32,000 nt of DNA from an archaeon (GTDB taxonomy: Archaea; Asgardarchaeota; Thorarchaeia; Thorarchaeales; Thorarchaeaceae), in assembly GCA_024275415.1 (NCBI GenBank), contig JAJRZD010000053.1, positions 1-32,000 of the forward strand, written 5' to 3'. Shown here in pieces: positions 20,739 through 21,048 of this stretch. Within the stretch, counting starts at the first letter, position 1; each line of letters opens with the position of its first letter. Under the pieces are notes generated by a model that was not told the origin of the DNA, searched no databases, and saw only the letters and a program-made list of their open reading frames with translations. A program made the position numbers and the translations under genes.

Positions 20739-20896
20739 CCCTGTTATTGAAGGTTACCCGTCAGCTAATAGTCCTTTTGCATTTACTCATGAGCATTTAA
20801 CTGGAGTCATGTATATTAGGTACTCGAACCGTCCCTCTGGACTTTTGAAAAACCTTAATTCAATGATGGTATCATAGCTGATGTGGTGAAAGATTC

Positions 20897-20989
20897 ATGG
20901 TTCGTTATTATGACGAAGATGAATGGGCTGATGACGAAGAGGACTGGGACGACGATGATGAATGGGCTGACGATGATGATGACTGGTGA
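20897..20989 (+). CDS. Unannotated 30-aa acidic/Trp repeat microprotein MVRYYDEDEWADDEEDWDDDDEWADDDDDW
   Basis: ATG 20897 to TGA 20989; GGTGA at 20885-20889; TATA-like 20847-20860; T5 at 20996-21000. Synonymous GAT/GAC and GAA/GAG variation keeps the D/E/W pattern. Confidence 0.7.
   Translation: MVRYYDEDEWADDEEDWDDDDEWADDDDDW
20918..20986 (+). repeat. Imperfect 39-bp (13-codon) tandem duplication inside the micro-ORF
   Basis: GATGAATGGGCTGA at 20918 and 20957; GACTGG at 20942 and 20981. Confidence 0.75.
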
Positions 20990-21021
20990 TGCGCATTTTT
21001 GGTTGGAGGAATGGCAGTTAC

Positions 21022-21048
21022 GGGAGGGAGCGCAGACCTGCTCCTCCC
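21022..21048. terminator. GC-rich hairpin between convergent micro-ORF and MTAP
   Basis: GGGAGGGAGC / GCTCCTCCC, 9 bp with one bulge. Confidence 0.55.

Follow-up and report, generated by a model that had tools for sequence, protein, structure and literature searches.

The short reading frame between a nitrilase-family gene and mtnP in a 32,000-nucleotide stretch of a Thorarchaeota genome (the window; Table 1) is a genuine protein-coding gene that is absent from the annotation. Its product is a strongly acidic microprotein with a net charge of -18 and tryptophans at residues 10, 17, 23 and 30. What is demonstrated for the family is its coding nature, its composition, the terminal tryptophan, and a linkage to two strongly basic products, an unannotated protein designated c0 and a lysine-rich micropeptide. 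The peptide has perhaps an even chance of being a disordered polyanion that uses its tryptophans as anchors on the basic surfaces of nucleic-acid-binding proteins, thereby titrating or chaperoning them.

A protein-coding gene absent from the annotation

The frame, its composition and a set of expression signals of its own had been described in a sequence-only reading of the window that also took the host for a probable Asgard archaeon, and all of these were located as claimed, the host being a member of the Thorarchaeota. The peptide had further been described as built from a duplicated 13-residue unit; a period-13 duplication is indeed present, but it is a trait of this copy and not of the family, in which the constant feature is a tryptophan every 4-8 residues on an aspartate/glutamate background.

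A protein search with the 30-mer over 61 genomes returned only the peptide itself, and synteny and DNA patterns were therefore adopted instead. With mtnP as the anchor, comparison with the corresponding loci of 29 relatives revealed a syntenic acidic-tryptophan reading frame of 26-51 codons, in the matching orientation, in 24 of them. Across the resulting 25 loci (including that of the window) translation starts at ATG (11), TTG (9) or GTG (5) and ends at TAG (10), TAA (9) or TGA (6), and aspartate is encoded by GAC (178) and GAT (181) about equally. Codon position 3 takes 183 of the 248 base differences (74%) in 36 non-overlapping close pairs, so that conservation of the frame and a bias to synonymous sites, two of the checks proposed earlier, both came out in favor of a gene. 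Ribosome-binding site and promoter spacing are also kept, with a GAGGTG-type site at 17 of the 25 mtnP-anchored loci and a TATA-like motif 41-45 nt upstream at 10. The last residue is tryptophan in 143 of 173 distinct genes and glutamate in 10; selection acts on the aspartate/glutamate content, the spaced tryptophans and the C-terminal tryptophan. The frame is the sole one of its kind in its 3.5-Mb genome, and three triplet-shuffled copies of that genome contained none.

A non-coding locus, such as a simple repeat or a C/D-box guide or other small RNA, is most improbable. The Rfam C/D-box matches in its favor are weak (best E 0.23; 17 bits against a gathering cut-off of 42). Against it, 13 of the 25 loci have no D box, and the codon-position bias, the interchangeable starts and stops, and the kept ribosome-binding site speak for a protein gene. 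Two further candidates were rejected. An attenuator leader peptide does not fit a gene that is convergent with mtnP, here and in the relatives, and has no co-oriented operon downstream, and selenocysteine read-through of TGA was dismissed because all three stop codons occur among the relatives. In the window, the hairpin between the two convergent genes folds only weakly (z -1.0 to -1.7), and scans for bacterial-type elements in its region gave no match; 13 relatives have a hairpin of different sequence at the equivalent site, with z below -1.9 in 12 of the 13, and it is probably a terminator or 3' stabilizer.

Nothing named was found for the peptide in Pfam, a PDB profile search or the ESM Atlas; in the Pfam searches, biased sequences may be lost to the HMMER filters. 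Ten members looked up in a collection of 15 billion proteins were all absent from it, and the literature covered, which excludes most subscription journals, contains no description of the peptide family or of the module.

Table 1. Features of the acidic-tryptophan gene and its flanks (window coordinates)
Feature	Position	Strand	Remarks
Nitrilase-family (CN_hydrolase) gene	19932-20738	-	Left neighbor
BRE/TATA-like promoter element	20847-20860	+	CTTAATT at 20854-20860, 43 nt 5' of the ATG
Ribosome-binding site GGTGA	20885-20889	+	Sequence motif
Acidic-tryptophan microprotein gene	20897-20989	+	30 aa, 19 D/E, 4 W, C-terminal W; start ATG
T-tract (T5), possible archaeal terminator	20996-21000	+	Sequence only
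GC-rich hairpin between convergent peptide gene and mtnP	21022-21049		Folding
mtnP/MTAP-like phosphorylase gene	21059-21922	-	Convergent right neighbor, synteny anchor; no functional link implied

Linkage to a basic protein and a lysine-rich micro-gene

Clustering of the genes that flank the peptide gene brought to light c0, a very basic, unannotated protein of about 270 residues (lysine plus arginine about 50-70 vs. aspartate plus glutamate about 20-35) for which there are about 100 representatives at 50% identity, the named ones all archaeal. An acidic-aromatic short frame lies within 1.1 kb of 92 of the 107 distinct c0 genes, 7 of the 15 misses having flanks cut by locus or contig ends, and the linkage is seen in divergent, tandem and convergent layouts; gene neighborhood among kin is non-independent evidence. 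A DNA pattern of tryptophan, acidic residues, tryptophan and stop was also run over 400 Asgard genomes, with the reversed pattern as control. The control gave no match anywhere, while the pattern was found in 62 of 85 genomes of the window's own family (f1), 11 of 19 of f12, 2 of 5 of f16, a few of f32 and f33, and none of the 135 genomes of f9, the largest Asgard family; c0 is distributed over these genomes like the peptide, the corresponding numbers for f1, f12, f16 and f9 being 60, 17, 3 and about 0.

The c0 model (pLDDT 85) has two ferredoxin-like domains of the Cas2/PaaX_M type and a three-helix bundle. Its nearest named fold is ChrB_N (TM 0.68 by the match), with weak structure matches to Cas2 (E 0.013) and PaaX (Foldseek E 0.06). 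A ferredoxin-like domain with a helical bundle is thus shared with ChrB_N (in its stand-alone model), PaaX_M and Cas2, but c0 carries an extra N-terminal ferredoxin repeat, does not conserve the catalytic aspartate of Cas2, and scores under every Pfam cut-off, including those of PF20229 and PF20803. Single-sequence folding of the N-terminal part reached a pLDDT of only 38, and a VIA search with c0 returned generic helical bundles. Charge and predicted fold suggest that c0 may bind nucleic acid. Prediction of a complex between c0 and its cognate peptide scored 0.00, a "no answer" that counts neither way.

At 50 of the c0 loci with the peptide, a lysine-rich micro-gene (17-30 residues, about 40% or more lysine) is also present, 100-250 nt from the acidic gene. 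Examples that have a ribosome-binding site and are unannotated were recorded at loci L075, L082, L187-L200, L231-L248 and L032-L042. The last of these sets comes from f12, and at almost every one of its loci the acidic gene faces, in convergent orientation, the gene for an unannotated protein of about 160 residues (cluster c7, no Pfam match). Elsewhere a broken c0 gene with several stops (L376; G472:C11:170664-171404) lies beside intact acidic and lysine-rich frames, and a distant c0 homolog (L260/L261:4001-8690) follows a tRNA gene near genes for a lysine-aminomutase-like radical SAM protein and an ATP-grasp protein, with no acidic short frame found near it.

The window itself holds what appears to be an orphan or remnant of this module, because c0 (sought by tblastn and with two profiles) and the lysine micro-gene were not found in its 92.9% complete genome; for the same reason the clue of the basic neighbors was invisible from the window. 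In the closest relative the order is nitrilase, acidic gene 2, c0, acidic gene 1, mtnP, and close relatives in general have a second acidic gene and/or c0 between the nitrilase gene and the peptide gene, whereas only nitrilase, one acidic gene and mtnP are found here. The window's copy is the ortholog of gene 1, the c0-divergent paralog, and aligns with it at 70% over 330 nt extending into mtnP; the rest of the intergenic stretch aligns no better than shuffled sequence. A recombination chimera of the two paralogs was rejected, as the copy aligns from the ribosome-binding site onward with the c0-divergent paralog and keeps the promoter motif of that paralog.

The acidic gene is likewise kept without c0 in genera g4 and g5, in family f21 and in one tested Thermococcaceae genome. 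Since the peptide persists in this way, it is taken as the constant part of the module, with some use that is independent of c0; and since c0 and the lysine peptide were not found in the window's genome, they cannot be its sole clients. A functional link to the nitrilase or to mtnP was dismissed because these neighbors change between lineages. Two other genes near the locus were noted. One (18955-19560, + strand; cluster c6, no Pfam match) encodes a membrane protein that is missing from the annotation, has an extended acidic N-terminal tail containing phenylalanine and tyrosine, and is kept close to the peptide gene across Thorarchaeota. The other, a methyltransferase (22762-23661, - strand), divergent from a TPR gene, is retained at the locus across the family; it resembles protein-arginine methyltransferases through a weak match to the PRMT5 oligomerization domain (E 3e-6).

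Occurrence in other archaea

Stand-alone look-alikes of the peptide occur in Bathyarchaeia, in other Thermoproteota (Crenarchaeota-type genomes), in family f21, and in 40 of 61 Thermococcaceae genomes, where a short proline-lysine run comes before the acidic body. The low-complexity peptides of distant archaea may, on sequence grounds, be convergent rather than homologous; their common neighbors argue for homology in Asgard archaea and Bathyarchaeia, and less so in Thermococcaceae. The Thermococcaceae genes (L329-L358) are conserved, encode 44-64 residues with an NLS-like Pro-Pro-Lys-run start and a glutamate/tryptophan body, and sit upstream of moeA or NIP7; they were not present in the protein collection searched.

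Possible functions of the peptide

In many archaea the peptide is encoded next to a very basic protein and a lysine-rich micro-gene, so that its most likely role is to neutralize basic nucleic-acid-binding surfaces, more than to act on actin. The peptide would be disordered and would act as a polyanionic mimic of nucleic acid, its aspartate/glutamate runs covering basic DNA- or RNA-binding surfaces and its tryptophans, above all the last one, dropping into hydrophobic pockets, much as Trp52 of eIF3j, with its flanking acidic residues, binds the RRM of eIF3b (PMC2824034). By this means c0 and the lysine peptide would be titrated or chaperoned, and prevented from engaging nucleic acid before they are required. 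Because the peptide survives in genomes that have no c0, it must on this reading also serve a more general basic client (e.g., histone, ribosomal proteins, translation factors). Acidic chaperone regions are known to act as DNA mimics that occupy DNA-binding sites (PMC10987829). The acidic regions of Npm2 and Nap1 (PMC10987829), like prothymosin-alpha with linker histone H1, provide the comparison of a polyanion shielding lysine-rich nucleic-acid binders, which the adjoining acidic and lysine-rich genes of archaea resemble. The eukaryotic proteins differ in being larger, free of tryptophan and not encoded as a gene pair, and have no sequence relation to the peptide. Although it falls outside the Sem1, WASP-A and LysW families, the peptide probably acts in the manner of acidic disordered mimics already described.

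Three alternatives overlap, and all could be partly true. Rather unlikely, though the strongest of them, is a small cofactor of translation or ribosome recycling, an archaeal counterpart of the eIF3j acidic-tryptophan motif or of a stalk tail. It would bind the ribosome or ABCE1, and c0 would assist it by binding RNA. In eukaryotes eIF3j is linked to ABCE1. An acidic-tryptophan frame lies less than 500 nt upstream, on the matching strand, at 6 of 30 Thermoproteota ABCE1 loci; c0, peptide and ABCE1 are in line at Bathyarchaeia-class loci L359, L362, L371 and L372 and, by sequence, L257/L258; some Thermococcaceae copies abut the NIP7 gene (L330-L333); and at L251 a c0 gene is found in a group of genes for ribosomal proteins. 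The other 24 Thermoproteota ABCE1 loci, however, have no such frame, the peptide was never seen beside ABCE1 at Asgard loci (in the window's genome ABCE1 is on another contig), and the peptide gene is patchy over archaea where ABCE1 is nearly universal. The ABCE1 match in this genome (G000:C69:20466-21239, by tblastn) covers the C-terminal part only and is possibly cut at the contig end. In the N-terminal acidic motif of eIF3j/Hcr1 a tryptophan on an aspartate/glutamate background binds a basic fold of the ferredoxin/RRM type (PMC2824034), of which c0 has two. eIF3j has about 260 residues and a folded C-terminal part, whereas the archaeal peptide is the motif alone, which occurs 3-8 times and forms the end of the chain; the two are alike in pattern.

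It is unlikely, though less so than the next two alternatives, that the acidic and lysine-rich micropeptides bind each other or coacervate as a charge pair in the manner of prothymosin-alpha and H1, forming part of chromatin or a condensate, with c0 only their transcriptional regulator. The two genes are co-oriented within about 100-250 nt at some 50 loci and also occur in f21, without c0; c0 and the peptide gene frequently diverge, an arrangement seen with regulators; and Thermococcaceae fuse a short lysine run to the acidic body. At their start the lysine peptides resemble the N-terminal tails of two Asgard histones (L296 and L306), and such tails are carried by the histones of f9, f29 and f21 but not by the five Thorarchaeota/f12 histones inspected. 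Against a charge pair, a tailed histone coexists with a free lysine peptide in f21, no lysine-rich frame was found in the window's genome or beside the mtnP-linked copies, and the MAKKK start is common among unrelated Asgard proteins, the DNA pattern for the lysine peptide being unspecific in that it also matches histones and other proteins starting with MAKKK.

A carrier or ligase substrate of the LysW type, in which an amino-group carrier tail has lost its zinc ribbon, is improbable as the present function, while a LysW-type zinc ribbon with an acidic tail is a possible origin of the peptide. LysW/ArgW proteins (PF21344) have an acidic tail with a tryptophan near the end, and at two deep c0 loci a LysW-type zinc ribbon with an acidic tail ending in tryptophan or phenylalanine holds the place of the peptide (L264, PF21344 E 9e-10; L251, E 0.001). 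Anaerolineae also have LysW-like zinc-ribbon proteins with an acidic tail that ends in tryptophan and not glutamate (L093:2427-2657, L133:1036-1263, L138:4597-4989), and in two cases the gene upstream was assigned, by eye, as a probable lysine 2,3-aminomutase. The C-terminal glutamate that LysW needs is, however, missing from the peptide, as are the lys/arg operon setting and, outside the L251 and L264 variants, the zinc ribbon; the window's own peptide has no cysteine. Five genomes gave no LysW match over the cut-off, and no lysX/argX ATP-grasp ligase gene was found among the neighbor clusters examined.

An equally improbable alternative is a linear-motif adaptor of eukaryotic type, similar to WASP-A or Sem1, for actin/Arp2/3, TPR or PCI proteins. 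The acidic tails of WASP and Myo1, and Sem1, have acidic stretches like the C-terminal run of the peptide that ends in tryptophan. An actin gene and weak PCI-type (PCI/winged-helix) matches are present in the window's genome, and TPR genes lie a few kilobases away. The whole protein, though, is an acidic-aromatic sequence of 26-51 residues, lacking the WH2 and central regions that accompany the acidic, tryptophan-ending run of WASP, Scar, Myo1 and cortactin. DSS1/Sem1 (PF05160) is likewise small, acidic, tryptophan-containing and disordered, and is both a DNA mimic and a multi-client adaptor, but it has about 70 residues and a C-terminal helix, whereas all members of the archaeal family end with the last tryptophan or very shortly beyond it, and PF05160 had no match at E<=1 in five genomes. 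Only one actin gene is present, with no second (Arp2/Arp3-like) member of the actin family in the genome, and a search for ARPC4 was uninformative, with no match there or in the controls. In the part of a 2024 review drawn on here, profilin and gelsolin are the only Asgard actin regulators named (PMC12050087). No actin, Arp, PCI, cytoskeletal or proteasome gene was found among the neighbors inspected. Nor does the distribution follow actin, the motif being found in none of the 135 genomes of f9 but in most of those from Thermococcaceae, which are not known to have Asgard-type actin. Of the earlier proposal of an adaptor or nucleic acid mimic, the second half fits the basic neighbors, while an adaptor role toward actin/Arp2/3, kinesin TPR or PCI proteins is unsupported. 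In line with its caution that the likeness to eukaryotic motifs might be convergent, the resemblance to WASP and Sem1 is best interpreted as that of an acidic-tryptophan motif adopted convergently.

More speculatively, and at rather long odds, a stand-alone acidic-tryptophan chaperone similar to prothymosin or Sem1, a free lysine peptide resembling a histone tail, and a dedicated reader with the Cas2/ChrB fold might form a three-part charge-switch system in archaea, including Asgard archaea, as a prokaryotic forerunner of eukaryotic acidic-tryptophan motifs and of linker-histone/chaperone pairs.

In summary, a gene family missed by annotation spans much of the archaeal tree. The Thermococcaceae that have the look-alike are cultured and genetically tractable, which makes the question testable now, and their conserved gene is the best experimental handle. 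Should the peptide prove to be a chaperone of basic nucleic-acid binders, or the partner of a free peptide resembling a histone tail, this would show that acidic disordered chaperones and tryptophan-anchored acidic motifs, usually deemed eukaryotic, exist in archaea as stand-alone forms.
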